A stretch of DNA of 64,000 nucleotides from an uncultured Clostridium sp. (GTDB taxonomy: Bacteria > Bacillota > Clostridia > TANB77 > CAG-508). The notes below the pieces were generated by a model, which did no database searches, was not told the origin of the DNA, and saw nothing but the letters and a program-made list of their open reading frames with translations. The stretch's first letter is position 1; each line of letters starts with the position of its first letter. A program made the translations under genes and the position numbers. Shown in pieces: positions 15,563 to 53,736 of the stretch. The stretch covers positions 15,215 to 79,214 of the forward strand of contig CAOKGO010000001.1 in assembly GCA_948468045.1 (NCBI GenBank). The letters run 5' to 3'.

Positions 15563-15712
15563 TTTTAATCATTCCTTTCATTAAATGATTTACTCTTTTA
15601 AATTTAGTCTGTTACAATATAGTTATCCTATAATTTTTTAAAAGTATTACTACTTATTATTTCTTAAGAAAATCTCGTTTGACAAAAATAAAAAATCTGT
15701 GTATAATATAGA

Positions 15713-15806
15713 TAGAAAATGAGATTTACAGACAATGTGGCTACCACATATTATTGTAATAACAACACATTACTCCGTCAAAAGCAAATGTGTTGTTTTA
15801 TTTATT
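15713..15806 (+). ncRNA. Candidate antitoxin-type small RNA of convergent module 1
   Basis: Promoter is TTGACA (15679..15684), a 17-nt spacer ending in TGTG, then TATAAT (15702..15707). Terminator is AACAACACAT..ATGTGTTGTT plus a T-run (15761..15806), shared with the opposing peptide gene. Confidence 0.55.
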
Positions 15807-15903
15807 CCTTATTAATCCAAATTATGTATATAATCGTCAATAAGGCTACGTTTACAGTTAGGGAAAATCCCAAAGTATATATTAAAAATAATATAAATCC
15901 CAT
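15802..15903 (-). CDS. 33-aa hydrophobic peptide, type I toxin-like (MGFILFLIYTLGFSLTVNVALLTIIYIIWINKE)
   Basis: Strong SD GAGGTGGTG 5 nt before the ATG. Own promoter is TTGCAT-17-TATAGT (16009..16014 / 15986..15991). Convergent with the sRNA. Paralogues are at 16769 and 53162. Confidence 0.6.
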   Translation of the reverse strand: MGFILFLIYTLGFSLTVNVALLTIIYIIWINKE

Positions 15904-16487
15904 AAACACCACCTCACTCTCTCATAGCCAAAGCTATGTAGTAAAGTGGCAACACACATTGCTTGTCCCATTTCCTATATCTAATACTATATATTATTTA
16001 AATATAGAATGCAAGCAAACAATGTGAATTTATACAATTATTTGTAATTTTATAAGTAAAAAACAATAACTAAAGAAATCATCTATTCCTTTTATTTAAA
16101 TGGCAATATATACAAAGTTAATGAAATATATTAATCTTCTAGCATTTTATATGTATATTGTAATAGTTTAGTTCTCTTTCAAAATTCACTACTTTATTTA
16201 AAATTTAATATATTAAATTTTAACTTGTATCAAGAAACCTTATTAATCAACTCCTTGCAATATCATTTAGCAGTCTCATTTGATATTGCTAAAATGATAT
16301 CATAAATATACATATTTATTAAATAAGATTTCATAATATTTTTTGACATTCTCATAAAAGTTTTTTATACATATAAAATCATTTTTTGATTTTTCAAGTG
16401 ATGAAACCCTTGAAAATACTGCATTCTTATTTCAACATCAAATATATAAAAAACCGAGAAAACATTGATATTTCAACGTTTTCTCGA

Positions 16488-16504
16488 TTTTTCTTTGGAG
16501 GCGA
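16488..16504. repeat. 17-nt direct repeat TTTTTCTTTGGAGGCGA (distal copy of the tRNA-Cys 3' end)
   Basis: Identical to 18094..18110, which covers the last 9 nt of tRNA-Cys plus 8 nt of flank. Confidence 0.7.
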
Positions 16505-16681
16505 CAGTCTACACGACTAACCTCAAACCTATTCCTACAACTAGCTTTCAAAATTTATTATCCACTTTTTATAACAATTTTATAACATTTGATTTAATTT
16601 TATATACCATAGTGTAACACACTATAACACACCTTTTAAAATCATATTTGACATTTATTAAAATTCTGTGTATAATAGAGA

Positions 16682-16775
16682 TAGAAAATAAGAACGTACA
16701 GAAATGTGCGTTACCAAATATCATTGATATACACCACATTGCCGACCAAAGCAAAATGTGGTGTATTTTTATTGT
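16682..16775 (+). ncRNA. Candidate antitoxin-type small RNA of convergent module 2
   Basis: Promoter is TTGACA (16648..16653), 17 nt, TATAAT (16671..16676). Terminator is ATACACCACAT..ATGTGGTGTAT plus a T-run. Confidence 0.55.
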
Positions 16776-16876
16776 TCCCTATTAGATAGCATTATGTATA
16801 TAACACTTAATAAGGCAACGTTTATAGTTATTGAAATCATAAATCCTATTATTAAGAACGCTAAAAAATCTAACAT
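16769..16876 (-). CDS. 35-aa hydrophobic peptide, type I toxin-like (MLDFLAFLIIGFMISITINVALLSVIYIMLSNREQ)
   Basis: SD GGAGGTGGTG. Promoter is TTGTAT-17-TATAGT (16986..16991 / 16963..16968). Shares the NVALL motif with the 15802 and 53162 peptides. Confidence 0.6.
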   Translation of the reverse strand: MLDFLAFLIIGFMISITINVALLSVIYIMLSNREQ

Positions 16877-17093
16877 ATAAACACCACCTCCAATCTCCCA
16901 ACAAAAGTTGAGGAATTAAAGGTAACACTCACATCTACTTTTCTTATTTTCTATTAACATTTACTATATACTATATTTTTATAAAATACAAGCGAACAAA
17001 CTAAATAATTTAATCTCAATTTATTCTATTTAGCTTGCTATTTTACATTCTTTAAATTTTATTATATAATGTGATATAAAAAGGTGATTAATA

Positions 17094-17940
17094 ATGGAAA
17101 GTTTAATAAGTGGTGATGTATTAGAACCAATTAGTGATTTAGGAATTGTATTACTAGATAAAATAGAAAAAGCAACTGGATGGATTTTTTTCTACTACAA
17201 CAGCTAAAAAAGAAGGATATAAAAATATAATTGAAGAAATATCTAAAAGAGATGATATAAATCCAATAGATAGAGCAGTCATAATAAGTAATTTTAGAAA
17301 GATAAAAAGAGAACATAAAAATAAAACTCAAATAGTTGATAAAGCTATCTTATTGTTAGAAAAAGGAGATAACCCTGAAAAATTAGATAATGATTGGGTA
17401 TTAAGATTTTTTGAATTTTGTAAGAATGTAAGTAATGAAGATTTACAATATGTATGGGCTAAAATATTGGCTAATGAGTGTAAAGAAAATTCTAATAATT
17501 CATTTAAACTTTTAAATACAATATCTGAAATTTCAAATAATGAAATTAATCTGATAAGAAAGATATTAAAAGAATGTAATTATGGCATAAGAAATTTTGA
17601 AGCTATAGGTATTATTTGTATAAAAAATGAATATTTAGAAGACATAGATATAAAATATGATGAAATTATAAAGCTTGAAGACTTTGGGATAATGAAAAGA
17701 GAAATTACTACATTGCAAGATGAAATTTCATTTGACTTAGAAAATGAAATAATAAAGTTTATTAGAAAGCCAAAAAAGAAAGGCCATTTAAATCTTATTA
17801 AATATGCTAATTTTTATAGATTTACTCATATAGGTATGGAGATAATAGAACTAATAAATGAAGAAATAAGTGGAAACCAATTTAAAAAATTAGAGAAAGC
17901 TTTTGACTATGAATACAATGTAATGTTAGAAAAGAAATAA
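17094..17940 (+). pseudogene. DUF2806-like protein gene interrupted by a +1 shift inside a T7 run (17185..17191)
   Basis: ATG 17094 reads MESLISGDVLEPISDLGIVLLDKIEKATGWIF and then stops. The next frame continues STTTAKKEGYKNIIEE.. into ORF 17353..17940 (DNDWVLRFFEFCKNVSNEDLQYVWAKILANE). No CGG is involved. Confidence 0.55.
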
Positions 17941-18093
17941 TTTTATAACATTTTTTAACATATTCGATTTGTTTTTTATAACAATTTTATAACATCTAGT
18001 TTGAACCTTTAAAACTAATGTGATAATAATGTGATAAATATAAAAACAGTATTCATTTCAAAACCTTGAAATATGCTGTTTTTGCTTGTTTGG

Positions 18094-18110
18094 TTTTTCT
18101 TTGGAGGCGA
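18094..18110. repeat. 17-nt direct repeat TTTTTCTTTGGAGGCGA (proximal copy, overlaps the tRNA-Cys 3' end)
   Basis: Identical to 16488..16504. Confidence 0.7.
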
Positions 18111-18175
18111 GTGTGGGAGTCGGACCCACCATCAGAGTTTTGCAGACTCGTGCCTTACCGCTTGGCTAACTCGCC
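18102..18175 (-). tRNA. tRNA-Cys (anticodon GCA), CCA encoded
   Basis: Manual cloverleaf: acceptor GGCGAGT/ACTCGCC, anticodon loop CTGCAAA, T-stem GTGGG/CCCAC, 74 nt. The T-loop reads TCCGACT (C at position 55). Confidence 0.85.
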
Positions 18176-18199
18176 AAATACTACTACCATAGCAGTTTT

Positions 18200-18273
18200 T
18201 GGAGCAGGTAACGAGAATCGAACTCGTAACTAAACCTTGGCAAGGTTTCATTTTACCACTAAACTATACCTGC
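18200..18273 (-). tRNA. tRNA-Gly (anticodon GCC), CCA encoded
   Basis: Acceptor GCAGGTA/TACCTGC, anticodon arm AAACC-TTGCCAA-GGTTT, T-arm ACGAG-TTCGATT-CTCGT, 74 nt. Confidence 0.9.
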
Positions 18274-18472
18274 ACTTTTATAAAATTTTCAAAGATTGAC
18301 TTTCGCCTTGCCAAGGCTACGTTTTTCTTCTACTAATTCCATTGTATTCATGATTAAGCTGTTTTATTCCTAATGCATTCATAATAATAACAAATTTATG
18401 AACAATTGTCAAGGAAACAACTATTTAACTTTTATTTTTTAATTAAACAGTTGTAACCTTTCTCAAAAAATT

Positions 18473-18514
18473 CATTTTGGGCACTTCAGTGCCTGTCCCA
18501 ATTATGCCCAAATG
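18473..18514 (-). terminator. GGGAC-core hairpin with a different stem (CATTTTGGGCA/TGCCCAAATG, core CCTGTCCC on plus strand), terminator of topA
   Basis: Inverted repeat followed by a U-run on the minus strand. Confidence 0.6.
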
Positions 18515-18522
18515 TGTTTTAG

Positions 18523-20616
18523 TTATTTCTTTTTGGTTCTTTTTTTAGCTGTCTTAGTTGTTTTGGATGTTTTTGTTGTTTTTCTTGGCTTTTTGGTTGT
18601 TTCTTTTTTTATTTCTTCTGCTTCTTCTGGATTCCACTTTTCTCCTTTTTTTGGCTTGTTCCATGAGATGTAGTCACATGATGCTGGGTTGTTTTCACAT
18701 ATGTAGTAATTTCTTTTTCTTTTTGTTTTTCTTACTTGTACTGTTGCTCCACATTTTGGACATGGTACGTCTATTGTTTCTATTATTGGTTTTGCGTTTT
18801 TACATTCAGGATATCCTGGACATGCTAAAAATTTGCCATATCTTCCAAATTTGTATACCATCATTCTTCCGCATTTTTCGCATTGTACGTCTGATACTTC
18901 GTCTACTAATTCTACGTGTTCTAGTTCTTTTTCTACTTTTTCTATTTCTTTTTCAAATGGCCCATAGAATTCTCTTATCATTTTTTTCCATTGTTCTTTT
19001 CCATTTGCTATTTCATCAAATTCGTTTTCTATTTTTGCTGTGAATTCTACATTTATTACGTCTGTGAAGTTTTCTGTTAATAGTTTGTTTACAATTCTTC
19101 CAAGCTCTGTTGGATGTAATTGTTTTTGTACTTTTTCTATATATCTTCTTTCTAGTATTGTTGTGATAGTTGGCGAGTATGTACTTGGTCTACCTATTTC
19201 TTTTTCTTCTAATGCTTTTACTAAGCTTGCTTCTGTGTATCTTGGTGGTGGTTCTGTAAAGCTTTGTTTTGGATTTAGTTTTTTTAGTAATAACTCTTGT
19301 TTTTCTTTTAGGTCTGGTAACATTCCTTGCATTTCTTGCTCTTGTGCATCTGTCCCCTCTACATATAAAGTCATAAATCCTTGAAAACGTATGGTTTGTC
19401 CGTTTGCTTTAAATGTATAATTGTTTGCATCTATTGAAACTGCCATCGTGTCATATATTGCTGCTGACATTTGACTTGCCATAAAACGATTGTATATTAG
19501 TTTGTATAGTTTGTATTGATCTTTGCTTAAATAGTCTTTTATGCTTTCTGGTTCTAAGTCTGCATAAGTAGGTCTTATACCCTCATGTGCATCTTGTGCA
19601 TCTTTATTGGTTTTGTAATATCTATTTTCATAGTATTTTTCACCATAGGTTGCTACTATATGGCTTTTTGCTGCTGCTCTTGCTTCTTCTGATATTCTTG
19701 TTGAGTCTGTTCTCATGTATGTTATTAAACCAACTGTGCCTTTTTCTGGCATTTTGACTCCTTCATATAGACCTTGTGCTATTGACATTGTTTTCTTTAG
19801 TGTAAATCCTAGTTTTCTTGATGCTTCTTGTTGCATTGTACTTGTTGTAAATGGTGGAGCAGGATTTCTTTTCTTTTCTCCTCTTTTTACTTCTTGTACT
19901 ATATATTTGGCTTGTTTTAAGTCTTTTAAAATTTTATTCATTTCTTCCTCAGAGTGAACTTCTAGCTTTTTTCCGTCTTTTCCATGAAATCTTGATTCAA
20001 ATTCTTTTTTGCTGTCTTTGTCTTGTAGATTTGCATATAAATTCCAGTATTCTTCTGGTTTGAAGTTTTCTATTTCTTCTTCTCTGTCTACTATTAATTT
20101 TACTGCTACTGATTGTACTCTTCCAGCTGATAGACCTCTTCTTACTTTTTTCCATAATACTGGACTCATTTTGTAACCTACTATTCTATCTAATACACGC
20201 CTTGCTTGTTGTGCATCTACTAAGTTGATGTCAATGTCTCTTGGTTCTTTTATTGCTTTTTGTACAGCATTTTTTGTTATTTCGTTAAATGTTACTCTTG
20301 TTATCTTATTTTTTTCCTCGTCTAATAAAGTGGCTAAATGCCATGCTATTGCTTCCCCCTCACGGTCAGGGTCAGTTGCGATATATATTTTTTTTGCTTG
20401 TTTAGCATCTTTTTTTAGGCTTTTTATTAAATCTCCTTTTCCTCTAATGTTGATGTATTCTGGTTCAAAGTCATGTTCTATATCTATTCCCATTTTTGAT
20501 TTTGGTAAGTCTCTGATGTGTCCCATAGATGCTACTACTTTTGTGCTTCCACCTAAGAATTTTTTTATGGTATTAGCTTTTGCTGGTGATTCCACTATTA
20601 CTAATTTATCTGCCAT
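18523..20616 (-). CDS. topA: DNA topoisomerase I
   Basis: 697 aa. TOPRIM start MADKLVIVESPAKA, C-terminal zinc ribbons (CEKCGRMMV.., CPKCG..) and a lysine-rich tail. Confidence 0.95.
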   Translation of the reverse strand: MADKLVIVESPAKANTIKKFLGGSTKVVASMGHIRDLPKSKMGIDIEHDFEPEYINIRGKGDLIKSLKKDAKQAKKIYIATDPDREGEAIAWHLATLLDEEKNKITRVTFNEITKNAVQKAIKEPRDIDINLVDAQQARRVLDRIVGYKMSPVLWKKVRRGLSAGRVQSVAVKLIVDREEEIENFKPEEYWNLYANLQDKDSKKEFESRFHGKDGKKLEVHSEEEMNKILKDLKQAKYIVQEVKRGEKKRNPAPPFTTSTMQQEASRKLGFTLKKTMSIAQGLYEGVKMPEKGTVGLITYMRTDSTRISEEARAAAKSHIVATYGEKYYENRYYKTNKDAQDAHEGIRPTYADLEPESIKDYLSKDQYKLYKLIYNRFMASQMSAAIYDTMAVSIDANNYTFKANGQTIRFQGFMTLYVEGTDAQEQEMQGMLPDLKEKQELLLKKLNPKQSFTEPPPRYTEASLVKALEEKEIGRPSTYSPTITTILERRYIEKVQKQLHPTELGRIVNKLLTENFTDVINVEFTAKIENEFDEIANGKEQWKKMIREFYGPFEKEIEKVEKELEHVELVDEVSDVQCEKCGRMMVYKFGRYGKFLACPGYPECKNAKPIIETIDVPCPKCGATVQVRKTKRKRNYYICENNPASCDYISWNKPKKGEKWNPEEAEEIKKETTKKPRKTTKTSKTTKTAKKRTKKK

Positions 20617-20682
20617 GTAATCCTCCTTATTTTTGCTTCTTCTTAGTATTCTAGCTTACTTTTCTACATTTTGCAAGCTTTT

Positions 20683-21258: not shown

Positions 21259-21287
21259 AAGATGGAGTTTTGCTATTAAAACTCTCT

Positions 21288-22154: not shown

Positions 22155-22166
22155 AGATTTCTCCTA

Positions 22167-25268: not shown

Positions 25269-25284
25269 AGTGCTCCTATCTTTT

Positions 25285-28966: not shown

Positions 28967-29043
<77 letters not shown>

Positions 29044-29173: not shown

Positions 29174-29487
29174 CTATTTTTTTAGAATATCTACCAATTC
29201 TTCATCAACATCTTTAATTTCACGATTTATTGCATTAAAAATAAACAGTCCATCTTTTTCAAGTATATCATATACTTTTTTCAGAACTTTTACTGCATCA
29301 CCTTTAGTAAAATGAACAAAAACTCTCCAACAAAAAACGGCTGAATACTTTTCATCAAACTCATTTTCTAAAACATTAAATTTAATTGTCTTTATACCTT
29401 TAGATTTTATCGAATTAATAAAATCTTCTGCTATATCACTTGCTGTTATCTCATATCCTAATTCTTCAATATATTTTGCATTTGTTT
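29174..29487 (-). pseudogene. 3' remnant of a class I SAM-dependent methyltransferase gene (no start codon; 5' part missing)
   Basis: The minus frame reads ..KYIEELGYEITASDIAEDFINSIKSKG..FDEKYSAVFCWRVFVHFTKGDAVKVLKKVYDILEKDGLFIFNAI..*. It opens abruptly next to convergent module 4. Confidence 0.55.
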
Positions 29488-29549
29488 GCTATTCAATAAT
29501 ATTATTGAATATAAGTTGACTTTTTTATTTTTTTTCAGTATAATAATTA

Positions 29550-29648
29550 TAGAAGATGAACGACCACAGTAATGTGGCGTGTCGCTAAATATTGTTTAAA
29601 AAATTTTTAAATACATCTCTAACGACCAAGCAGAGATGTGTTTTTTTC
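29550..29648 (+). ncRNA. Candidate antitoxin-type small RNA of convergent module 4
   Basis: Promoter is TTGACT (29516..29521), 17 nt, TATAAT (29539..29544). Terminator is ACATCTCT..AGAGATGT plus T7 (about 29613..29648). Confidence 0.5.
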
Positions 29649-29771
29649 GTTGTCTAATTTTCTTATTGTAACAAAAAGTGCCACAAATAAGGCAACAGCG
29701 ACAACAGTTACCATTGCAAGTTCTATAAATAGTATGTATATAAAAGCCAAATAAACTTGTTCAAATAACAT
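29619..29771 (-). CDS. 50-aa hydrophobic peptide, type I toxin-like (MLFEQVYLAFIYILFIELAMVTVVAVALFVALFVTIRKLDNEKNTSLLGR)
   Basis: SD GAAAGGGGG. Promoter is TTGACT-17-TATAAT (29860..29865 / 29837..29842). The 3' end overlaps the sRNA terminator. Confidence 0.55.
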   Translation of the reverse strand: MLFEQVYLAFIYILFIELAMVTVVAVALFVALFVTIRKLDNEKNTSLLGR

Positions 29772-30025
29772 ATGCATCGCCCCCTTTCATCAAGAAAGCG
29801 ACACTCCACACTCTGTTTTGCTCATCTTCTAGTAAAATTATACAATAGTCATACATCGAAGTCAATCTAATTTACGAAAATTTGTTTTTATAATTATAAT
29901 ATGACCATATTTTGATAATTTGATCTTTCCTATACAATAAGCTCTATCTAATATATTTTCAATTTATTATCTTCTTTTTTCATTTCACTGCGATATACGA
30001 GCAATTTAGTATTTATATCTGTAAA

Positions 30026-40660: not shown

Positions 40661-42175
40661 ATGAAAAAAATGAATTCTTTGTGGTTAGATTCTGATTTAA
40701 AAAGGCCTGCCTTTCCTACTCTTTCTGAGGATGTTGAAGCTGATGTTTGTATTATAGGGGCTGGTATTTTTGGTATTACTTGTGCATATTATTTGAGTTC
40801 TTTAGGTTTTAAGGTAGTTGTTCTTGAAAAAGATGATATAGGTAGAAAGACTACTGGTCATACAACCGCCAAAATTACTAGTCAGCATGATTTGTTTTAT
40901 AATTACTTAGTTTCTTCTTATGGAAATGGATTTGCTAAGGATTACTTAGAAGCAAATGAACAGGCTATTCAGAATATTAAAGATATTATAGATAAAGAAA
41001 AAATTAAGTGTGATTTTGAATATCAAAATAATTATGTTTATGCTACTAAAAAAACTGATTTACCAGCAATAAAAAAGGAGATCTCTAGCTTAGAGTCTAT
41101 TGGTTTTCCTTGTGAGTTGGTTACAAAAACAGGTCTTCCTTTTGAAATTGCAGGTGCAGTTTGCTTTAAAAATCAAGCTCAATTTCATCCTTTAAAATAT
41201 CTTTATGGTTTGGCTAAAAGCATTACTTCTTGTAATGGCAAAATTTATACAAATACTACTGCTACTAATTTAGAACAAAATTTAGATTCTTCTTATACTG
41301 TTTTTGCTAATGATTCTAAAGTTAAATGCAATTTTGTTGTAGTTGCTAGTCATTATCCTTTTATTAATTTTCCTGGTTTTTACTTCTTAAAGATGTATCA
41401 ATCCACATCTTATCTTATTGCTGTGGATACTAAGAAAACTCTTTTTAATGGTATGTATATTAGTTACAGTGACCCTATATTTTCTTATAGAACTGCTAAA
41501 TTTCAAGGAAAAAATTTGTTGCTAATTGGTGGTGGGGAGCATAAAACTGGTCAACCCTCTTGTTTTGAAGATACTTATGGTATTTTAGAAAATGAGGCAA
41601 AAAAGTTCTATCCAGATGCTAAAGTCTTATTTCGTTGGAATACAAGGGATTGTATTTCTCTTGATAAGTTGCCATATGTTGGTAGCTATTCTAATTATAT
41701 GCCTAGAGTATATGTTGGTACAGGTTTTAAAAAATGGGGAATGACTTTGTCTAATGTTGCAAGCTCTATTGTAGTGGATGCTATTTGTGAAAAGGAAAAT
41801 AAGTATGCTTATTTGTTTAATCCGTCTCGTTTAAAACCTATTAAAAATAGAGATGAAATGAAAAATATGTTGGTTCAGTCAACAAATTCTTTGTTATTAG
41901 ATAAGTTTAGACCTGCCAATATGCCTTTTGATGAAGTTCAAAATAATTCTGGTAGTATTATTGATGTTAATGGACAAAAGGTTGGTATATATAAAAATAG
42001 TGATGGCAAAATTTATGCTGTTAAGCCTTTTTGTACACATTTAGGTTGTCAGCTTTCTTGGAATGATGTAGATAAAACTTGGGATTGCCCTTGCCATGGC
42101 TCTCGTTTTGATTATAATGGTAAAAATCTATATGATCCTGCTTTTAAGGATTTAGAAACTTATAATTTGAATTAA
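40661..42175 (+). CDS. FAD-dependent oxidoreductase fused to a C-terminal Rieske [2Fe-2S] domain
   Basis: DVCIIGAGIFGITCAYYL dinucleotide fold. Rieske motif CTHLGCQL..CPCHGSRF. Confidence 0.8.
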   Translation: MKKMNSLWLDSDLKRPAFPTLSEDVEADVCIIGAGIFGITCAYYLSSLGFKVVVLEKDDIGRKTTGHTTAKITSQHDLFYNYLVSSYGNGFAKDYLEANEQAIQNIKDIIDKEKIKCDFEYQNNYVYATKKTDLPAIKKEISSLESIGFPCELVTKTGLPFEIAGAVCFKNQAQFHPLKYLYGLAKSITSCNGKIYTNTTATNLEQNLDSSYTVFANDSKVKCNFVVVASHYPFINFPGFYFLKMYQSTSYLIAVDTKKTLFNGMYISYSDPIFSYRTAKFQGKNLLLIGGGEHKTGQPSCFEDTYGILENEAKKFYPDAKVLFRWNTRDCISLDKLPYVGSYSNYMPRVYVGTGFKKWGMTLSNVASSIVVDAICEKENKYAYLFNPSRLKPIKNRDEMKNMLVQSTNSLLLDKFRPANMPFDEVQNNSGSIIDVNGQKVGIYKNSDGKIYAVKPFCTHLGCQLSWNDVDKTWDCPCHGSRFDYNGKNLYDPAFKDLETYNLN

Positions 42176-42431: not shown

Positions 42432-42716
42432 AACAAAAGAGGCATGATTAAAATTTTTTGACCTTTTAGATAACTTTTCATGCCTCGTCTTTGTTCGCCT
42501 GCCAAATTTGCTTTAGCAAATTTGTGTAGAATGTATTGATGTTATAGAAAAATCTTTGATTTTTTCTATAACAGAACAAAAGAGGCATGATTAAAATTTT
42601 TTGACCTTTTAGATAACTTTTCATGCCTCGTCTTTGTTCGCTCGCGAAAATTGCAAAGCAATTTTCTGTGGAACTCTTTATATTATAGGAAGTTCGGAGA
42701 ACTTTTCTATAATATA
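42432..42716. repeat. Two tandem copies of the composite three-hairpin intergenic repeat
   Basis: AACAAAAGAGGCATGATTAAAATTTTTTGACCTTTTAGATAACTTTTCATGCCTCGTCTTTGTTCGC occurs twice (42432 and 42574). H2/H3 differ between the copies but keep their pairing. Confidence 0.7.
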
Positions 42717-42720
42717 ACAA

Positions 42721-42758
42721 AAATGAGACAGTTTAGACCTGTCCCTACTGTCTCATTT
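42721..42758 (-). terminator. GGGAC-core hairpin (AAATGAGACA/TGTCTCATTT) overlapping the last codons of the glycosylase gene
   Basis: Inverted repeat. The gene ends ..EMRQ* within the right arm. Confidence 0.5.
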
Positions 42759-43617
42759 CTCTTCTCCAATAAAATAAATATTGCTGTGCTAGTCCTGCTA
42801 AATCACCAAATTTCTTTGTTGCTATTTGTTCTATTTGCCTTTTTGTTACTTTTGTTTCATCTAAATTTTTAAAATATAAGTCATTCATTACTCTTCTTAC
42901 CCATACATCAATAGGAAATACTTCAAATCTTTTTAATGTAGAAAATAGTAATATGCAGTCTGCAACTTTTGGACCTATTCCAGATAATGTTAGTAATTGT
43001 TCTCTTACTTCTATGGTATTTGGGTTGTTTTGCATTTTTCTTAAGTCTACTTTTTTATTTAAAATCATTTGGGTTGTTTCATATATCCTTTTGTCTCTAA
43101 ATCCTAATCCTAAGTCTCTGTATTCTTGTACTGTTACGTCTTTTAGTTCTTCTGGTGTTGGGAATGTGTAGTATTTCTCACCTTTAAATGTGATTTCTTT
43201 TCCATATGCTTTTGATAGTCTTTCAATAATTCCTTTTATTCTTGGTATGTTGTTGTTTGCTGAAATTATAAATGATATTATTGTTTCCCATAAGTCTTGG
43301 TTTAAAATTCGAATTCCTTTACCATATTTTATGCTTGTTTCCATGTTTTTGTCTATTTTTGATAATGTTTCTTTTATTTTTTTATAATCTCTTTTTAGGT
43401 CAAAGTATTGTTCTACTGTTTCTTCTAAGTCTTTTTTGCAAATTCCTTCTACTATAATTTCTTCTTTTTCCTTTTTTATATTTAATACATTTTGCCCAAA
43501 TATTCCTGTATAACTTCCGTCTTTTTGTATGTTCCAACGAAAACATTGGCCACATTCAAATATGTCTTTTGGTTCAAATGAATCTATATTTTTTAATATT
43601 ATTTTTTGTTCTTTCAT
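42745..43617 (-). CDS. HhH-GPD superfamily DNA glycosylase (8-oxoguanine glycosylase type)
   Basis: LSGIGPKVADCILLF helix-hairpin-helix and PIDVWVRR. Confidence 0.8.
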   Translation of the reverse strand: MKEQKIILKNIDSFEPKDIFECGQCFRWNIQKDGSYTGIFGQNVLNIKKEKEEIIVEGICKKDLEETVEQYFDLKRDYKKIKETLSKIDKNMETSIKYGKGIRILNQDLWETIISFIISANNNIPRIKGIIERLSKAYGKEITFKGEKYYTFPTPEELKDVTVQEYRDLGLGFRDKRIYETTQMILNKKVDLRKMQNNPNTIEVREQLLTLSGIGPKVADCILLFSTLKRFEVFPIDVWVRRVMNDLYFKNLDETKVTKRQIEQIATKKFGDLAGLAQQYLFYWRREMRQ

Positions 43618-47733: not shown

Positions 47734-47753
47734 GTTACAAAACAAAAGGATGG

Positions 47754-48755
47754 GTGGAGATTGCTTTGAAAAATTTTAAAGTTGCTATTGTTGGTGCAAC
47801 AGGTCTTGTAGGTAGGTCTGTTATACAAGTATTAAATGAGAAAAATTTGCCTATTGAAAGTTTTGGTTTATTTGCTACTAAAAAATCTGCTGGAGAATTT
47901 TTTTCTATTTGTGGTAAAGAATATGTTGTTGAAGAATTAACTGAAAATTCTTTTGATAGTGGTTTTGATTTTGCTATTTTTTCAGCTGGTGGAGAAACTT
48001 CTAAAAAGTTTGCTCCAATTGCTGCTTCAAAGGATTGTATTGTTGTTGATAATAGCAGCTATTTTCGTATGAATGATGATGTGCCTCTTGTAGTTCCAGA
48101 AGTTAATTTAGAAGATGCTTTTTTAAATCATGGAATTATTGCTAATCCTAATTGTTCAACTATTCAAGCAATGCTTCCTTTGAAAGCATTGGAAGATAAA
48201 TATCGCATTAAAAGAGTGGTTTATTCTACTTACCAAGCTGTATCTGGGGCTGGAAAAGACGCTTTATGTGATTTGGAAAATATCGATAATAGTAAGCCTT
48301 TGAAAAAGTTTCCATATCCTATTTTTAATAATTGTTTGCCACATATTGATGTATTTGTGGAAAATGGTTATTCAAAAGAAGAAATGAAAATGATTGAAGA
48401 AACTAAAAAAATTTTGCATAGGCCAGATTTAAAGGTTACTGCTACAACTGTAAGGGTTCCTGTTCAAAATTCTCATTCTGAATCAATTAATTTGGAATTT
48501 GAAAAAGATTTTGAGATGTCTGATTTGCTTTCTACTTTAAGAAGTTTTCCTAATTTGATTTTACAAGATGATTTAAGTCAAAATTTATACCCTATGGCTA
48601 TTAATGCAACTGGTCATGATGAGGTTTTTGTTGGTAGGGTTCGTCGTGATGAAAGTATAAGTTCTGGCATAAACCTTTGGGTTGTTGCTGATAATATTCG
48701 CAAAGGGGCTGCTAGTAATGCAATTCAAATTGTGGAAAAATTGATGGAGAGATAG
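47754..48755 (+). CDS. asd: Aspartate-semialdehyde dehydrogenase (start uncertain: GTG 47754 or TTG 47766)
   Basis: VAIVGATGLVG, NPNCSTI and SGAG motifs. Confidence 0.9.
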   Translation: MEIALKNFKVAIVGATGLVGRSVIQVLNEKNLPIESFGLFATKKSAGEFFSICGKEYVVEELTENSFDSGFDFAIFSAGGETSKKFAPIAASKDCIVVDNSSYFRMNDDVPLVVPEVNLEDAFLNHGIIANPNCSTIQAMLPLKALEDKYRIKRVVYSTYQAVSGAGKDALCDLENIDNSKPLKKFPYPIFNNCLPHIDVFVENGYSKEEMKMIEETKKILHRPDLKVTATTVRVPVQNSHSESINLEFEKDFEMSDLLSTLRSFPNLILQDDLSQNLYPMAINATGHDEVFVGRVRRDESISSGINLWVVADNIRKGAASNAIQIVEKLMER

Positions 48756-48827
48756 TTTTCTTGTATGTTTTATAATAAACCTCTTAAATTATGAAAAGTT
48801 TTATAATTCATAATTTAAGAGGTTATT

Positions 48828-50592
48828 TTATATAGCAGTTAAAGTTACTGGAGCTTTAATAGAAACTCCATAGGTGCTGTTAGTTCTTTGTAATTCAATA
48901 CGAATATAATGTTTTCCTAAAAGTGAAGAAACATCTAAGTCTAAAGATATATTAGCATCCTCGCGACTATCATACCAATTAAAATCTTGATATATACTTC
49001 TTTCAACATTCCCTGCTGAATTTAGAGCCTTTAAAGTAATTTTTCCTGCACTCCCTGTATCTGACCATCCAATACATCTTAATTTTATAAAAGCAAAATT
49101 TGTTAAATCAAACATTTCATTACTTTGCATATAAGCTAAATTTTCTGTTGAATATAAATTTATACCATATTTAGTATCCTCCTCATGACTCCAACCATCT
49201 GGCCATTTGTCATATTTACCGTGGAGATATCCCGCTTCTATAAGAAAGACTAAATATGGAAACTGTTTGAGCAAAATATACACCATTTGATACTGTTTCT
49301 GTTTTATTTTCTTCATTATCACAACTTAATATATGCAAATACAAACTTCCTCTTGTAGTTGATGTTATAGGAATACTTGATGTTATTCCTGATAGTGTTG
49401 AAGCTGTATCCCAGTTGCTTGCATTAATTCCTAATTTACTTTCTGAATTGTTTATAATGTATTTGCAATTTTCTATATTTATACCACTTTGGTCATCACT
49501 TACTTCTACTGTTGCTGTTACTGTATTTCCTATATCTACTCTTGTTGATGTTAATGTTATTTTTGCATCATTTGGTGGCGTTTTATCAACTTCGTTTACA
49601 ATAATTGCTTGTTTTGATATAGATTCCTTTTTATTTCCTGCATTATCTACTGTTAAGATATGCAAGTAATAAGCTCCTGGATTTTCACATTTTAAAGTTA
49701 AATCTTCTGGATTTGTTGTAAAGTTTCCACCTGTGTATTCATTTTCATTTGTTCCAATTTCTTCTTTTTGGGTTGTATATATCCACATACAATTTTTTAT
49801 ATTTACATTGCTTACTCCGTTATCGCTTTGACTTACTGTTGCTGTAATGGCTTTTGCTGTGTTTGTTATTTTCCCACTAAAATTAATTGTTGCATCATTG
49901 GGAAGTTCTTTGTCAATATTTGTTATATTTTCTGTTGCATTTCCACCTATCTCGTCTAGCTCATTTATTAATCTTGCAAAGATTGGACCATTTTGTCCTA
50001 CTAATATTGGTTTTTCATAATTTGTCCATTTGCTTCCATCTGTTGAATACTGCAAAGTATATTTTTTTAGTTCTATGTTGACTATTATTTCTACTGTTAT
50101 ATCTTTATTTGTGTATTTTTCTTTTGGAATTAGGTTAAATGTTATATCACTTTCTTGTAAGTCTGGTGGTGGATTTTGTCCTTGCGTTCCTATGTATTTT
50201 ATTTCATTTTCTGTTATTTTATATACATATTTTTCTTTTGTTACTACATTTATAATTTCATCATTTTTTCTATTAACTTCCGATTCTTTAAATTTATCTT
50301 CTTTTTTTATTTCTTTTGTAAATTCATCTAAATATGTTTTTGTATCCCAATTATTTATAATTTTATTTGGTTGAAGTCCATTTCCTATTATTTTTAGAAT
50401 TTCTTCATATTCTTTCTTGTTGGTTTCTTCTTTAGCTATAGTTGACTTTGATAAAATTCCATTTTCTCCTGTTATGCTCACAATTGATATTCCTGCAAGT
50501 ATTAGCAATACTATTATTGTAATCACTAATGCTATTAAAGTAATACCTTTGCTTGTTTTTTCTTCGTTTTTTGTTTTTATTACATTAATCAT
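48828..50592 (-). CDS. Large pilin-like protein, paralogue of 30026..31517; continuous only if the C of an in-frame CGG is skipped
   Basis: N-terminus KGITLIALVITIIVLLILAGISI. CCA [C]GGT gives ..SYRSGISP-G-KYDKWPDGWSHEEDTKYG.. joining ORFs 49216..50592 and 48828..49322. Confidence 0.7.
49219..49221 (-). other. In-frame CGG at +1 site (pilin-like gene 2; 0 frame reads CGG TAA)
   Basis: (50592-49221) is divisible by 3. GGT at 49220 is in phase with ORF 48828..49322. Confidence 0.75.
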
Positions 50593-50933
50593 TAATATAA
50601 TTCTCCTTTATTTCTTTTGTTCTACTATTTTTAGAAAATAGCTGTAATAATTTCTTTAAATATTGTATCAATATTCAAAATTATGTCAATAAGTTTTTAT
50701 GCCTTGTCTTGTTCTCTCAAAAATTGCCCAATAATTAAAAAGAATATTTGGATTTATGTGTGAGACTAACAATTTTAGTGATATAATACAGTAAAAGAAA
50801 AAAATTATTCATAATAAGAGGGTATCCTAAAATGAACTCTTACCATTATAGTTAAATAAAACGAAAATTTATGGCATACTAAAATTCATCCATAAATCTT
50901 CGTTCTTGTAAATTAATAGGCTATATTTATTTT

Positions 50934-52108
50934 TCATTTTATTAATTTTTCATGTAGTTCTTCTATTATTGTATTTTCTATTTTTTTAACTATTATTTCT
51001 ATTTTTGATTGGGTTAAGTTCATATCTGTTATTTGTATGTTATGTTTTTGTAGAATTTTTATTGCTCTATTTAATACTGTATTGTCTTGTGTTATTCCAT
51101 AACCTACAATGCTTAGTTTTTCAATTTCTTTTTGCCTTAACAAATAATTTGGATAACTACTGTCTAATAGTTCTTGTACTTTGTTTTGTTCTGATTTTTT
51201 TATTCTAAATTCAATTTTTTGCTTTTCTTTTTGGAAGTTTTCTACAATTATATTGTTTTGTAATAAATTTTGATAGATATTATAAAATTCTTTTTCTTCT
51301 ATTTCTTCTTCTTTTTGCATTTCGATAATTACTAGTTGGTTACTTTTTACTATACTTTTTACTTCTGAACTTTCAATTTGTTCACAGATTTTTGTTCCGG
51401 CCTTTGTTTGTGAATGTTGATTTTGCAATTATACTACAATTGAATTTTTTTCCCATTTGTATACATCTGTTGTGCAAAACTTTTGCTCCACTGTCTGAGA
51501 TTTCCTGCATTTCGTCAAATGATATTTCGTCTAATCTTTTTGCCATTGTAATCATATTTGGGTCTGCTGAATAAATTCCGTCTACATCTGAAAATATATA
51601 GCATTTGTCTGCTTTTAATGCTACTTGCAATGCTACTGCTGTTGTGTCTGAACCTCCTCTTCCTAATGTTGTGATATCATCTTTTTCGTCAATGCCTTGA
51701 AATCCTGCTACTACTATGATGTTTCCTTTTTCAAGTTCTTGTTCCATTCTGTTTATTGCAATTTGCTCAATTTTTGCACTTGTATGTACTGAATTGGTTT
51801 TTATTCCAGCTTGCCATCCTGTTAATGATACTGCTCCGATATCCTTTTCGGTTTAGTAATATTGCTAGTTTTGATGCTGTTATTTGCTCTCCTGTCGATA
51901 AGAGCATATCCATTTCTCTTTCATTTGGAATTGCTGATAGTTCTTGTGCTTCTTTTATTAGTTGATTTGTTGTTTTTCCTTGTGCAGATACGACAACTGC
52001 TACATTTTTTACTTCTTTTTTTATGCTAATGATTTTTTCTGCAACAACATTTAATTTTATGTTGTCTGCTACTGAGGTTCCTCCGAATTTTAATATGACT
52101 GTGTTCAT
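50934..52108 (-). CDS. lysC: Aspartate kinase; continuous only if the C of two in-frame CGG codons is skipped
   Basis: The gene is split into three ORFs. KFGGTSV start, junctions ..NRKGY-G-AVSLTGWQAGIKT.. and ..STFTNKG-G-TKICEQIES.., GRGGSDTTA motif, C-terminal ACT region. RBS AAAGGTG precedes ATG 52108. Confidence 0.85.
51397..51399 (-). other. In-frame CGG at +1 site (lysC, second site, GGC [C]GGA)
   Basis: (51747-51399) is divisible by 3. GGA at 51398 is in phase with ORF 50934..51428. Confidence 0.85.
51836..51838 (-). other. In-frame CGG at +1 site (lysC, first site, TAT [C]GGA)
   Basis: (52117-51838) is divisible by 3. GGA at 51837 is in phase with ORF 51382..51747. Confidence 0.85.
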
Positions 52109-52656
52109 TTTCGTCACACCTTTGTTATTTTAAGTTACTAAAATGTAATATGATGTTTAGTAATTGCTTTTTACTTTTTAGTTACTTAATAAAACTCTAT
52201 CTAATTTTAAATAGTGTTATTCTTCTGTTGCTATTATAGTATATTTTTTATTTAGTTTCAAGGATTAACAAAAAATTAACAAAAAACTATTCTGCTTTAA
52301 ATTCTCCTGTAAGAATACTTCCTTTTGTTACTGTTCCTTGTCCTCCTGCTCCTCCACCAGTTGCTTGTCCTGCTATACCAATTAATCCTTTAGATGCATT
52401 TCCACCATTAGCTGTAATTGTATCAATATTCAAAATTATGTCAATGAATTTTTACCTCTTCTCTTATTTCTCGCAAAAAGAAATAGGTTTGGAGGCGTAA
52501 ACAAAATCAGAAGAACCTATAAATTCAGTAAAATAGCCATATTCAAGACTTCGTATTCCTTAACGTACAGCTATTGTACAGCATATTTTAAAATTATTGC
52601 TTAAAAACAGTATAAAGCATTACTTTAGTATATTTATTAGTTTTTTTCTTCATAAT

Positions 52657-52965
52657 TTAGCTTAACCTTTTCACTCCATTATACTTATGGCAGTTTTCGT
52701 TTCCCCGACAACTTATTTTAGCCTTGTAAAATATATCTCCGTCAATACATACGTTTGGGCATTTTTGAATTTGTTCTATTTTATTACCTTCCTTTGCACC
52801 ATGAAAGTAAAGTAAAATATCATTTCCATTCTTTTTTATTCCAAAAGAAACTGGCACAATATATGGATAGTCATTTCCTCTAAAAGCAATTCTTAATACA
52901 TTACATCTTTCTAATACATCAACTATTTTGTTAAAATCATTAATTTCACGACTTTTTAATCTCAT
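52657..52965 (-). CDS. Pyridoxamine 5'-phosphate oxidase-family protein, apparently C-terminally truncated
   Basis: MRLKSREINDFNKIVDVLERCNVLRIAF..PYIVPVSFG..LYFHGAKEGNKI. All three frames stop within about 15 codons after the in-frame CGG at 52705..52707. Confidence 0.55.
   Translation of the reverse strand: MRLKSREINDFNKIVDVLERCNVLRIAFRGNDYPYIVPVSFGIKKNGNDILLYFHGAKEGNKIEQIQKCPNVCIDGDIFYKAKISCRGNENCHKYNGVKRLS
52705..52707 (-). other. In-frame CGG (PNPOx-family remnant); frame choice not decidable
   Basis: (52965-52707) is divisible by 3. The 0 and +1 frames both end shortly afterwards. Confidence 0.5.
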
Positions 52966-53065
52966 GATATAGCTCTCCTATAATTTTTTTATACTAATGC
53001 TTTTTAGTTAGTTAGTTATTTCAAAAATCATTTGACTTTTCCTAAAAATCTGTGTATAATATAGA

Positions 53066-53166
53066 TAGAAAATGAGAAACCATAGTCAAATATGGTTACC
53101 ACTTGTAAAAAGTAATAACGGCACATTCCCTTAGGTCAAAAAGTAGAATGTGCTGTTATTTTTATT
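53066..53166 (+). ncRNA. Candidate antitoxin-type small RNA of convergent module 3
   Basis: Promoter is TTGACT (53032..53037), 17 nt ending in TGTG, TATAAT (53055..53060). Terminator is AATAACGGCACATT..AATGTGCTGTTATT plus a T-run. Confidence 0.55.
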
Positions 53167-53275
53167 CCTTATCTATAATTTTATTAACATATTGTATGTA
53201 ACAAACTGTCAATAAGGCTACGTTTAGAGTAACTGATGCCATTAAGGCTAATATTAAGAATAGTATAAAACTCAT
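53162..53275 (-). CDS. 37-aa hydrophobic peptide, type I toxin-like (MSFILFLILALMASVTLNVALLTVCYIQYVNKIIDKE)
   Basis: SD GAGGTGGTG. Promoter is TTGTAT-17-TATAGT (53380..53385 / 53357..53362). Paralogue of 15802 and 16769. Confidence 0.6.
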   Translation of the reverse strand: MSFILFLILALMASVTLNVALLTVCYIQYVNKIIDKE

Positions 53276-53736
53276 AAACACCACCTCACTTTCTGATAGC
53301 AAGCTATCTAAGTCAAAGTGGCAACACAACTACTTATCTCATTTCTATCTTTAACTACTATACTACATATTTTATAATAATACAAGCGAACAAAAACAAA
53401 ATTTCGCATATTTTTATATTCCAATAAAGTAATAAATTTAATTTACAAAGTATACTATCAAAAAATCTAAATAAAGAGCAAGAAACTATTAAATAATAAT
53501 ATAGATATACAATAATTTATTAATAGTTATACTATAAGAATTTGCTTACATCAAAGTACAACAATTATACAGCAAATTTTTACTGAACTGTGGTAATCTA
53601 TGATAGACATCTATCTTCTAAAACAAAAATACTCCCTTAAAAAGAGAGTATTTCTGAAAAGAGAGTATTTCTGCATTTTGTACCTTTATGCAATAATATA
53701 TACTATTATATGATAATTGCTTAAAAGTACAGATTA

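Follow-up and report, generated by a model that had tools for sequence, protein, structure and literature searches.

A type I toxin-antitoxin-like cassette with a putative leader-mimicking sRNA, present in four copies in an uncultured Clostridium

The window analysed here, a 64-kb stretch of DNA from an uncultured Clostridium sp., carries four copies of a compact two-gene cassette. Three paralogous modules of ~345 bp apiece lie at 15679..16014, 16648..16991 and 53032..53385, as a preliminary description had proposed, whereas its count of three was incomplete, a fourth, divergent copy at 29516-29865 having been overlooked. Modules 1–3 are surrounded by housekeeping genes. They align with one another over ~370 nt at 78% mean column identity and have a common layout, with promoters, SDs and peptide ORFs reading exactly as first given: in each, an sRNA gene and a peptide gene converge on a single hairpin. 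Homology stops at the promoters, and in the family alignment conservation is bounded by the two promoters. The ORFs at 15719..16027 and 16569..16754, previously set aside as spurious, are present; they run across the sRNA genes and the strand antisense to the peptide genes.

On the plus strand, promoter scans and pattern searches locate consensus sigma-A promoters for the sRNA at 15679..15707 (module 1, TTGACA-17-TATAAT), 16648..16676 (module 2, TTGACA-17-TATAAT) and 53032..53060 (module 3, TTGACT-17-TATAAT), scoring 12/12, 12/12 and 11/12, respectively. The pattern TTGAC(A/T)-17(..TGTG)-TATAAT, together with ATAGAAAAT, has three matches against 0.00 expected, and the module promoters are the only sites of the form TTGAC[AT]-16..18-TATAAT in the whole window. 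Across the family, this promoter is perfect in 74 of 76 modules. From it we infer an sRNA of ~94 nt in module 1 (15713..15806, plus strand; covariance model R1, 89.6 bits, with fold and covariation), which would include the 5′ motif AUAGAAAAUGAG, hairpin 1, the box CUACCAC, a terminator hairpin at 15761-15797 and a U-tail. The predicted counterparts, supported by the same model and by folding, are of ~95 nt in module 2 (16682..16776, plus strand; 74.4 bits) and ~101 nt in module 3 (53066..53166, plus strand; 100.2 bits), the latter comprising hairpin 1 (AACCAUA/UAUGGUU), the box ACCACUU and a terminator at ~53115-53159. The earlier proposal of a ~95-nt RNA devoid of any credible ORF is strengthened by the family alignment, which describes a structured non-coding RNA with compensatory changes in 11 of 14 base pairs. 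Its covariation score (0.394, against 0.168 in shuffles) was reached by none of 500 shuffles, and both hairpins are supported by covariation, with 93.8% of cells paired compared with 80.6% in shuffles.

The minus strand carries the gene for a hydrophobic peptide. Its promoters, TTG(C/T)AT-17-TATAGT, are found at 15986..16014 (TTGCAT, module 1, also supported by family statistics), 16963-16991 and 53357-53385 (both TTGTAT, modules 2 and 3), and with the SD GAGGTGG read as originally described. The ORFs likewise stand unchanged: 15802..15903 encodes 33 aa (MGFILFLIYTLGFSLTVNVALLTIIYIIWINKE), 16769..16876 encodes 35 aa (MLDFLAFLIIGFMISITINVALLSVIYIMLSNREQ) and 53162..53275 encodes 37 aa (MSFILFLILALMASVTLNVALLTVCYIQYVNKIIDKE), the first two having family homologues and the third an identical copy in 13 species-representative MAGs. 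Variability by codon position (position 2 far below position 1, which is below position 3), a TAA stop codon in all 76 family ORFs and an invariant GGTGG core of the SD indicate, at the level of sequence, that this is a conserved coding gene. The C-terminal tails of the peptides are short and weakly charged.

Between promoter and ORF lies a leader in which the SD is predicted to be locked. In module 1 (15904..15981, minus strand; fold and pair counts) it contains the 5′ motif AUAGGAAAUGGG at 15967-15978, the anti-SD GCCACUUUAC at 15941-15950, an inner hairpin and the SD GAGGUGG at ~15909-15915. In module 2 (leader and promoter, 16877..16991, minus strand) the SD GGAGGUGG, at 16884-16891, folds within a hairpin of 16/17 bp, with the 5′ motif at 16943-16955; in module 3 (leader and promoter, 53276..53385, minus strand) the fold places the SD at 53281-53287, the anti-SD at 53315-53322 and the 5′ motif at 53338-53349. 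The proposed pairing of the anti-SD GCCACTTT with the SD appears in the minimum-free-energy fold of all three mRNAs, and is retained in 97.9% of cells across 63 distinct family members. The hairpin enclosed by this helix has compensatory changes in four of its five pairs, while the helix itself changes on one side only, because the SD is fixed.

The hairpin on which the two genes converge has, as was claimed, the better U-tail on the sRNA side (a mean of 5.4 U per 10 nt, against 3.2 on the peptide side). Its loop motif, (C)AAAG(C/U)A, is retained in 58 of 66 sequences, and 61 of 66 have a YUNR motif in the toxin-sense loop.

Module 4 and its relatives follow the design of modules 1–3, but differ in SD, anti-SD, sRNA box and peptide. 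A promoter search places its sRNA promoter, TTGACT-17-TATAAT, at 29516-29544 on the plus strand, and the sRNA side including this promoter (29516..29647) matches covariance model R1 at 40.3 bits (E 6e-5), with the 5′ motif UAGAAGAUGAAC, a hairpin CCACA/UGUGG, the box GUGUCGCU and a terminator followed by U7. Its toxin side (29619..29865, minus strand) starts from a promoter TTGACT-17-TATAAT at 29837-29865. Its leader shares the 5′ motif and box with the sRNA of this module and has the SD AAAGGGGG; the ORF, also on the minus strand, encodes 50-52 aa, M(HM)LFEQVYLAFIYILFIELAMVTVVAVALFVALFVTIRKLDNEKNTSLLGR, a peptide with 338 unannotated homologues.

Database searches recovered 114 protein clusters of the peptide family of modules 1–3, and 148 loci in gut Clostridia MAGs. 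Among 1.84 billion representatives, 63 clusters at 50% identity were found. By its sequences the family is real but narrow, and it is unnamed. The peptide gave no significant match to any family in Pfam, NCBIfam, Rfam or PDB, none to any known toxin family, and none by tblastn against 50,697 phage records and a plasmid collection. The modules are multi-copy, with divergent paralogues coexisting in one genome, and in other genomes they often adjoin recombinase or relaxase genes (Mob_Pre, TnpV, serine recombinase, Resolvase).

Taken together, the type I toxin-antitoxin (TA)-like reading is supported, with all its predictions that can be checked in sequence borne out, and we give a probability of roughly 0.68 to each module being such a cassette, of par/Fst-like layout, with an additional decoy layer set out below. 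A weak sigma-A promoter would drive an mRNA for a single-helix membrane peptide of 33-37 aa, the presumed toxin, whose SD would be locked by the anti-SD box GUUGCCACUUU in a leader stem-loop. The convergent promoter, of consensus strength, would produce the ~95-nt sRNA, which is the presumed antitoxin and whose terminator hairpin would be the exact complement of the hairpin at the 3′ end of the toxin mRNA. The two RNAs could therefore meet loop-to-loop and form a duplex which, by analogy with known systems, may promote decay, translational silencing, or both.

An alternative is that the peptide is a small membrane protein without toxicity, for instance one that regulates a membrane complex or belongs to it, and that the cis-antisense sRNA tunes its expression; the cassette would then be a regulated small-protein gene rather than one for an addiction or stress toxin. 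Its lack of homology to any validated toxin, its short and weakly charged C-terminus and the housekeeping surroundings of modules 1–3 all speak for this. We nevertheless consider it unlikely, as the cassette is self-contained, with homology ending at the promoters, occurs as several divergent paralogues in one genome, and is met again in unrelated surroundings as well as next to relaxase and recombinase genes. Double repression, by a cis SD lock and a very strong antisense promoter, is typical of products that have to be kept off.

The decoy layer of the preferred, TA-like reading arises from a same-sense likeness between sRNA and toxin leader, which the preliminary description had overlooked. 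Over their first ~40 nt the two are alike with a mean z of 5.7 (z > 3 in 96% of 68 modules), and the sRNA covariance model also matches the leaders of modules 1 and 2. The likeness lies in conserved blocks, the 5′ motif and the box, with diverged segments between. It follows that the 3′UTR of a read-through toxin transcript should pair with its own leader. The predicted duplex of leader and anti-sRNA has a mean energy of -35.5 kcal/mol (z -6.8), and in 97% of modules is 8 kcal/mol better than the mirror duplex. Mismatches between sRNA and leader are G.U-compatible in 171 cases against 24 of the reverse kind (40 against 12 site-classes). The Wilcoxon p-values are inflated because the sequences are phylogenetically non-independent. 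The mismatch and energy asymmetries could both originate in part from strand compositional bias, the leader being richer in G and U and the sRNA in A. Cognate duplexes of leader and 3′ hairpin were no better than non-cognate ones.

Accommodating these features, the TA-like reading would work as follows. In its first ~40 nt the sRNA would repeat the leader in the same sense, with the 5′ motif AUAGRAAAUGAR and an anti-SD-like box, and toxin transcripts passing the weak toxin-side terminator would carry the sRNA complement in their 3′UTR. This 3′UTR would pair with the leader and offer an SD-like decoy, GUGGUAAC, to the anti-SD, partly opening the real SD; the sRNA, a perfect complement of the read-through 3′UTR, would take the decoy out of this pairing and let the mRNA revert to its SD-closed state. 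The same-sense likeness, the two asymmetries, the duplex energies and modelling lend indirect support to the earlier suggestion that a read-through peptide mRNA would be antisense to the whole sRNA. In the model, the SD-unpaired probability is 0.22 in the free read-through form, 0.10 with the 3′UTR blocked and 0.08 in the terminated form, a modest change, with module 1 lacking the trend. A search for a conserved terminator of the read-through transcript found none.

Another scheme would have the sRNA box UUACCAC, acting like a tethered version of the leader anti-SD, pair in trans with the SD, silencing translation directly in the style of SprA1AS or RNA II and dispensing with the read-through 3′UTR. 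The box hardly varies and stays unpaired immediately 3′ of hairpin 1, and box, leader anti-SD and SD change together between the families of modules 1–3 and module 4. The scheme is distinctly improbable all the same: duplexes between the sRNA 5′ domain and the translation initiation region are at the level of dinucleotide shuffles (z -0.29), ~6-7 bp at most can form, the box of the 34-aa subfamily (GUCAC) pairs still more poorly, and the G.U asymmetry points to pairing of the leader with the antisense of the sRNA instead.

The likeness of the two ends could also be a relic or instrument of mobility or duplication, whether of MITE-like repeats or of an ancestral inverted duplication with gene conversion, and involve no RNA switch. 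The module is indeed a discrete unit, at ~90% identity within non-homologous flanks, gatC and gatA are in one case separated by an inserted member of the module 4 family, and both promoters lie within the repeats. Gene conversion would be expected to leave uniform rather than block-wise likeness, however, and the directional, G.U-type mismatches speak against simple homogenisation. Searches found no transposase or target-site duplication, nor any copies in IMG/VR, phages or plasmids, and conservation exceeds the repeats: it takes in the -35 elements of the promoters and, upstream of the one on the toxin side, also a GTTCGC box. This explanation is thus very improbable.

Comparison with curated type I TA families returned no significant match, and in layout the modules are closest to par/Fst-RNAII. 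As in par of Enterococcus pAD1, there are convergent promoters, one bidirectional intrinsic terminator giving complementary stem-loops, a leader stem-loop that sequesters the SD intramolecularly, and a single-TM toxin (here putative) of ~33 aa, most of whose ORF lies outside the antisense RNA (PMC7472228, PMC8594479). Many family peptides also share with Fst a W that separates the TM helix from an NK(E/Q) tail. Unlike par, the modules have no DRa/DRb-type complementarity to the translation initiation region, the 5′ ends being same-sense copies, their sRNAs are ~95 nt rather than ~40-65 nt, and the 5′ upstream helix is absent from their folds. Nor do the peptides carry the P/D/S/TxxxG(C) motif of Fst/Ldr or match Pfam Fst or Ldr, and hhalign gives a probability of 0.7% against E. 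coli LdrA. The modules may constitute a new family and, judging from their sequences, a new regulatory variant of type I TA, with toxin and transcripts putative.

[quoted passage not shown] Neither sequence comparison nor Rfam linked the modules to bsrG/SR4, and in the modules the coupling would instead depend on an sRNA that mimics the leader and on a decoy resembling the SD, located in the read-through 3′UTR. Pairing of the extreme 5′ leader with a 3′ part of the toxin transcript, predicted here, recalls hok/Sok and aapA1/IsoA1. There, the toxin mRNA stays inactive in its folded-back form until its 3′ end is trimmed, and the antisense RNA has its binding site in the 5′ region; in the modules, by contrast, folding back opens the SD slightly in the model, and the antisense RNA gene lies opposite the 3′ end.

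The antitoxin of TxpA/RatA overlaps the 3′ end, as in the modules. Rfam gave a weak RatA hit in the module 3 sRNA (24.5 bits, E 0.66), which was treated as chance, since it fell short of the gathering score of 49 and was confined to that module. The type I TA systems of Clostridioides difficile (CD2517.1-RCd8 and others) likewise occur in Clostridia, with convergent overlapping toxin and antitoxin genes, TM toxins of 34-53 aa, multiple copies and a link to mobile elements (PMC6563280). Their toxins differ from the module peptides in having lysine-rich tails and in being located in prophages or beside CRISPR arrays, and the module hosts belong to another lineage, of uncultured gut MAGs.

Modules 1, 2 and 3 (15679..16014, 16648..16991 and 53032..53385) each comprise a plus-strand small RNA (sRNA) gene facing a minus-strand gene for a short hydrophobic peptide, a presumed toxin, and direct reading of these regions with listing of their ORFs located every element that the preliminary description had placed there. 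Alignment of the three modules over ~370 nt gives a mean column identity of 78%. Three instances of the composite pattern TTGAC-N13-CTGTGTATAATANAGATAGAAAAT were counted where shuffles predict 0.00, and three of the DNA pattern encoding the NVALL core of the peptides where they predict 0.09. Scored by their fit to the sigma-70 consensus, the sRNA promoters reach 12/12, 12/12 and 11/12, and a regular-expression scan of the 64-kb window for TTGAC[AT]-16..18-TATAAT recovered module promoters only. The minus-strand promoters match the -35 consensus at 3/6 positions (TTGCAT or TTGTAT) and carry TATAGT as the -10 element, and are therefore predicted to be much weaker than those of the sRNAs. The ORFs 15719..16027 and 16569..16754, earlier called spurious, are present, running across the sRNA genes and the strand opposite the peptide genes; in practice, gene finders miss or mis-call the peptide genes and return spurious ORFs of 61-102 aa here. 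Upstream and sRNA-internal ORFs (one beginning MRNHSQIWL, the 102-aa ORF, and a mini-ORF AUG-AGA-UAA) were rejected as they are not conserved, module 2 having AUA where the mini-ORF start stands.

The peptides of modules 1-3 are 33-37 aa long, a run of ~25 hydrophobic residues leading into NKE, NREQ or NKIIDKE, and thus combine a predicted transmembrane (TM) helix with a polar, weakly charged C-terminal tail, as is general for type I toxins. The consensus of this NVALL family is M-x-(D/E)-F-L-x-F-L-I-x-G-F-M-I-S-x-T-x-N-V-A-L-L-x-x-I-Y-I-x-(W/Y)-x-N-K-(E/Q). A profile search of 5.8 billion proteins, with a 55-aa upstream-extended ORF as the first row of the query, gave 114 clusters, mostly of 33-38 aa and from gut metagenomes, with no Pfam hit among them and named at source only as "hypothetical protein" or "unknown [Clostridium sp. 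CAG:245]". Among 1.84 billion representatives, only 63 clusters at 50% identity came out of an exhaustive HMM search. Scanning 185,579 species-representative genomes yielded 148 confirmed loci, nearly all in metagenome-assembled genomes (MAGs) labelled uncultured Clostridia or Clostridium, and 79 loci together with the window provided 86 ORFs and 76 unique full modules. In pairwise comparisons codon position 2 varies least (750/230/1081 at positions 1/2/3 in the 34-aa group), the stop codon is TAA in all 76 family ORFs, (A/G)GTGAGGTGGTGTTT precedes the ATG in 66 of the 76 and GGAGGTGG in most others, and the Shine-Dalgarno (SD) core GGTGG is invariant across the family. No hit at E <= 10 was obtained for 31 family members in Pfam or NCBIfam, for PDB chains in the profile search, or by tblastn in phage and plasmid collections, and a pattern scan and tblastn found no relative in IMG/VR. 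The peptide is thus the product of a genuine gene, and its family is narrow and unnamed.

In the full-length alignment, conservation begins with a GTTCGC box, placed directly before the toxin -35 element, and stops at the sRNA -35 element, and the flanks are unrelated. The sRNA promoter, TTGAC(A/T)-17-TATAAT, is perfect in 74/76 modules, and the toxin-side TATAGT is kept in 56/76. The GTTCGC(TTG) box lies at 16015-16024, 16992-16999 and 53386-53394, and may be an operator or UP-like element.

From the inferred transcription start to the end of the U-tail, the sRNA measures 94-101 nt. RNAalifold predicts two hairpins from 76 sequences, with compensatory changes in 11 of 14 pairs and 93.8% of cells paired (80.6% in shuffles); the covariation score of 0.394, against 0.168 in shuffles, was reached by none of 500 shuffles, and sliding the register of the structure lowers pairing to 14-64%. 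Sequence conservation in terminator loops is rare, and here (C)AAAG(C/U)A is conserved on the 3' side of the loop in 58/66 sequences; read on the toxin strand the loop is U(G/A)CUUUG, with a YUNR motif in 61/66. The convergent sRNA gene has its terminator hairpin in common with the toxin gene and overlaps the stop codon, as befits an antisense antitoxin; because the sRNA U-tail meets the stop codon or runs over it, the 3' end of the toxin RNA and the sRNA terminator are complementary. The asymmetry of the U-runs at this shared hairpin, proposed at the outset, holds across the family, with a mean of 5.4/10 (mode 7-8) on the sRNA side and 3.2 on the toxin side. A strong intrinsic terminator for the toxin strand, with a 20-bp stem and a run of six U, stands at 16448-16493 (-), ~155 nt beyond the module 2 sRNA promoter, and could be where read-through toxin transcripts of module 2 end. 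No Rfam family matches the module RNA at gathering score; a full-length match of RatA to the module 3 sRNA only (53057-53140 (+)), at 24.5 bits against a gathering score of 49 and E 0.66, was treated as chance.

Sequestration of the SD by the toxin mRNA leader (its 5' UTR), also part of the preliminary description, gains considerable weight from the alignment. By RNAalifold and pair counting, 97.9% of cells are paired in the leader anti-SD:SD helix (GCCACU with GGUGG.U); this helix has one-sided changes and no others, because the SD is fixed. The hairpin that this helix encloses has compensatory changes in 4/5 pairs, and in module 2 a continuous 16/17-bp hairpin serves as the equivalent SD lock. 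On these predicted structures, sequestration is well supported. A further predicted pairing joins the leader segment AAGCAGAUGUGUGUUG to the 5' arm of the hairpin at the toxin 3' end, with -16.9 kcal/mol where shuffles give -10.8 +/- 2.7. As a co-evolving pair this was rejected, since cognate partners had no advantage over non-cognate partners (median rank 20 of 61); by predicted energy the complementarity is real, but co-variation could not be demonstrated.

The sRNA and the leader that it faces resemble each other in the same sense. AUAGRAAAUGAR opens both, GUU(A/G)CCAC follows ~20-30 nt later in both, and variants of the 5' motif match within a module, AUGAA with AUGAA and AUGAG with AUGAG. 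When every sRNA is aligned locally to its own leader, the mean z over dinucleotide shuffles is 5.7, and 96% of the 68 unique modules exceed z 3; the sRNA covariance model also matches the leaders of modules 1 and 2. As the genes are convergent, these shared segments are inverted repeats in the DNA. Matches to the -10 element plus UAGAAAAUGAG 5' motif also occur outside complete modules, at 29360-29384 (-) and 41576-41596 (+), and may be remnants or chance.

An sRNA bearing the GUU(A/G)CCAC box might act directly, as an anti-SD in trans. RNAduplex pairing of its 5' domain with the initiation region is no better than in shuffles (z -0.29), and this reading is therefore demoted to a rival. Pairing of the leader with the read-through 3'UTR, the toxin-strand RNA that continues past the shared hairpin and is antisense to the sRNA, is supported by mismatches and modelled duplexes. 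Leader and sRNA differ as leader G/sRNA A 131 times and leader U/sRNA C 40 times, against 24 for the reverse classes (spread over 40 vs 12 site-classes), counts that are limited by the phylogenetic relatedness of the sequences; such directionality is expected if the leader pairs, with tolerance of G.U, with RNA antisense to the sRNA. The predicted leader:anti-sRNA duplex has an energy of -35.5 kcal/mol (z -6.8, all modules below -3), and in 97% of modules it outdoes its mirror duplex by 8 kcal/mol. The same relatedness bears on this asymmetry, and a difference in base composition between the strands may account for part of it and of the mismatch directionality. Complemented, the sRNA box reads GUGGUAAC, which is SD-like. 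In the model, the SD is free of pairing with a probability of 0.08 when the mRNA is terminated, 0.22 when it reads through with a free 3'UTR and 0.10 when that 3'UTR is blocked, as the sRNA would do, a modest effect from which module 1 departs. The toxin 5' motif stays single-stranded in the folded terminated mRNA and pairs only in the read-through form.

Leader pairing with the read-through 3'UTR can be cast as a mechanism. The toxin mRNA would start at AUAGGAAAUGAG, with GUUGCCAC as its leader box, and the antitoxin sRNA would be a same-sense mimic of the leader. The anti-SD would toggle between two partners, translation being off when it lies on the SD and on when it lies on an SD-like decoy in the 3'UTR. 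The read-through 3'UTR, as the antisense of the sRNA, would thus supply an activating decoy that draws the anti-SD away from the SD. Being perfectly complementary to the decoy region, the sRNA would strip this decoy and repress by competing the leader off it, and its pairing with the toxin 3'UTR would probably trigger decay too. We know of no type I toxin-antitoxin (TA) family for which a three-partner RNA switch of this kind has been described. A precedent exists in bsrG mRNA, in which binding of SR4 at the 3' end lengthens an SD-sequestering helix from 4 to 8 bp (PMC3834814).

Running the sRNA covariance model over the whole window with filters off scored the sRNAs of modules 1-3 at 100, 90 and 74 bits and gave a fourth match at 29548-29657 (40.3 bits, E 6e-5). 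This lies in a divergent module, module 4 (29516-29865), which the preliminary description does not include. Its layout is that of modules 1-3. On the plus strand, TTGACT-17-TATAAT precedes an sRNA that has a CCACA/UGUGG hairpin and ends in a terminator with U7 behind it; on the minus strand, TTGACT-17-TATAAT precedes a leader with a sequestered SD (AAAGGGGG) and an ORF for a 50-52 aa peptide, MLFEQVYLAFIYILFIELAMVTVVAVALFVALFVTIRKLDNEKNTSLLGR. The peptide has 338 homologues, all unannotated, and hhalign detects no homology between it and the NVALL family (probability 1.4%). The module 4 family shows its own motifs common to sRNA and leader, UAGAAGAUGAG or UAUAGACAGAG, with the box GUGUCGCU or GUGUCC, matched within each module. 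The overall RNA scaffold is common to modules 1-3 and to relatives of module 4 in other genomes (L088-L094), and the two peptide families have in common a promoter box (GTTCGCTTG), the 5' motif, hairpin 1 and the terminator loop; the promoter box is absent from module 4 of the window. The GTTCGC(TTG) box is likewise found in modules 1-3 and L088-L094 and not in the window's module 4. A further match of the sRNA model, at 42684-42769, was discarded as an ordinary bidirectional terminator behind a 290-aa gene.

Conservation of one scaffold across two peptide families without detectable homology would imply that toxin ORFs are swappable within a single regulatory chassis. The joint reading, in which the sRNA, leader and 3'UTR decoy form a three-partner switch and toxin ORFs are exchanged on one chassis, is tentative, and we would give it a probability of about 0.3.

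Among known systems, the modules most resemble par, with its Fst toxin and RNA II antitoxin. They have convergent promoters and a shared bidirectional intrinsic terminator, the defining feature of par (PMC7472228), an intramolecular 5' stem-loop that sequesters the SD, a toxin of ~33 aa, and an antisense RNA that barely touches the ORF. Unlike par, in which the direct repeats DRa and DRb make the two RNAs complementary (PMC7472228), the modules lack DRa/DRb-like complementarity to the initiation region (duplex z -0.29), and their 5' ends are inverted repeats in DNA that give same-sense RNAs, the opposite arrangement. In par the extreme 5' end of the toxin RNA is also hidden by a 5' upstream helix; in the modules the corresponding motif is paired in the read-through form and not in the terminated one. 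The NVALL peptides carry SxTxNVALL rather than the P/D/S/TxxxG(C) (PxxxG) motif of Fst/Ldr toxins in the TM helix. Fst/Ldr toxins conserve a W between the TM helix and a charged C-terminus, to which the weakly charged W-x-N-K tail is a partial likeness, the W being found in the 33- and 34-aa subfamilies and in distant members (YIxWxNK) and replaced by Y or L in the 37- and 35-aa subfamilies. No profile similarity to the Fst/Ldr superfamily was detected, and homology to LdrA was rejected (hhalign probability 0.7%). The 13 T1TA families that constitute the Rfam type I antitoxin set (PMC8594479) gave no covariance-model match to the modules at gathering score. The type I toxins of Clostridioides difficile associated with prophages and CRISPR are widespread in phages, whereas the NVALL tail is not lysine-rich and the family has no match in phage or plasmid collections; on this comparison the NVALL modules are not related to them. 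The comparison with curated families suggested in the preliminary description thus returned nothing relevant from Pfam, NCBIfam, Rfam (gathering and E-value modes) or PDB. A par-like layout without family matches is the reason for filing the modules as a type I TA-like system, putatively a new family and a new regulatory variant, and the type I TA-like interpretation stands as far as sequence can take it.

Homology searches easily miss type I TA systems, and to our knowledge those of Clostridia have been validated only in C. difficile. The modules add a compact candidate system that is present in many uncultured gut Clostridia and for which an alignment of more than 76 natural sequence variants is already available; these variants are ready-made compensatory mutants, which makes the regulatory logic directly testable. 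If true, the leader-mimic and decoy arrangement would give an antisense RNA encoded at the 3' end a new means of controlling a ribosome-binding site far away, and would explain how antitoxin RNAs can originate, through inverted duplication of the toxin's own leader. The near-consensus promoters and small putative toxins could also become counter-selection tools for gut Firmicutes.

Modules 1 and 2 have a beta-propeller protein gene on one side and, on the other, a DUF2806/Abi-alpha-like gene, beyond which are tRNA-Cys, tRNA-Gly and topA, and this topA-tRNA site is occupied by modules in several other MAGs. The DUF2806 gene, with a weak match to Abi_alpha (abortive infection), is immediately adjacent at 17353-17940 (+), with the tRNA genes at 18102-18273, and the stretch from the beta-propeller gene to the tRNAs may be a small accessory islet. 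Module 3 is situated between a truncated Pyridox_ox_2 ORF and gdpP, and its type is ~90% identical among MAGs with non-aligning flanks. The 37-aa peptide encoded at 53162-53275 is found unchanged in 13 species-representative MAGs (L001-L013) whose flanks do not align, which suggests recent horizontal spread or very strong constraint. The P0101 subfamily of modules (88 contigs; L084-L087) is found among Mob_Pre relaxase, TnpV, large serine recombinase and PDDEXK_5 genes, a context that we take to resemble Tn4451-type mobilisable transposons, and the P0013 subfamily module (L080-L083) adjoins a small resolvase and hypothetical genes; members of both are thus in or beside small mobile elements. 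Module 4 lies ~470 nt downstream of tRNA-Arg (28967-29043), and its relatives are near a serine recombinase gene or HNH/HTH genes, or sit between gatC and gatA. The last arrangement, an insertion into the gatCAB operon, is seen in L092-L094, where the gene call fuses leader and peptide into a 64-aa protein.

Elsewhere in the window, several short minus-strand ORFs each match only part of a larger domain: AA_kinase (116 aa, 51767-52117), Pyridox_ox_2 (102 aa, 52657-52965) and RNA_pol_Rpb1_5 (187 aa, 55827-56390). They could be pseudogenes, frameshifts or assembly errors. A 187-aa ORF without a Pfam hit (10946-11509 (-)) adjoins a full-length OLE (ornate large extremophilic) RNA, which scores 351.7 bits at 11577-12178 (-).
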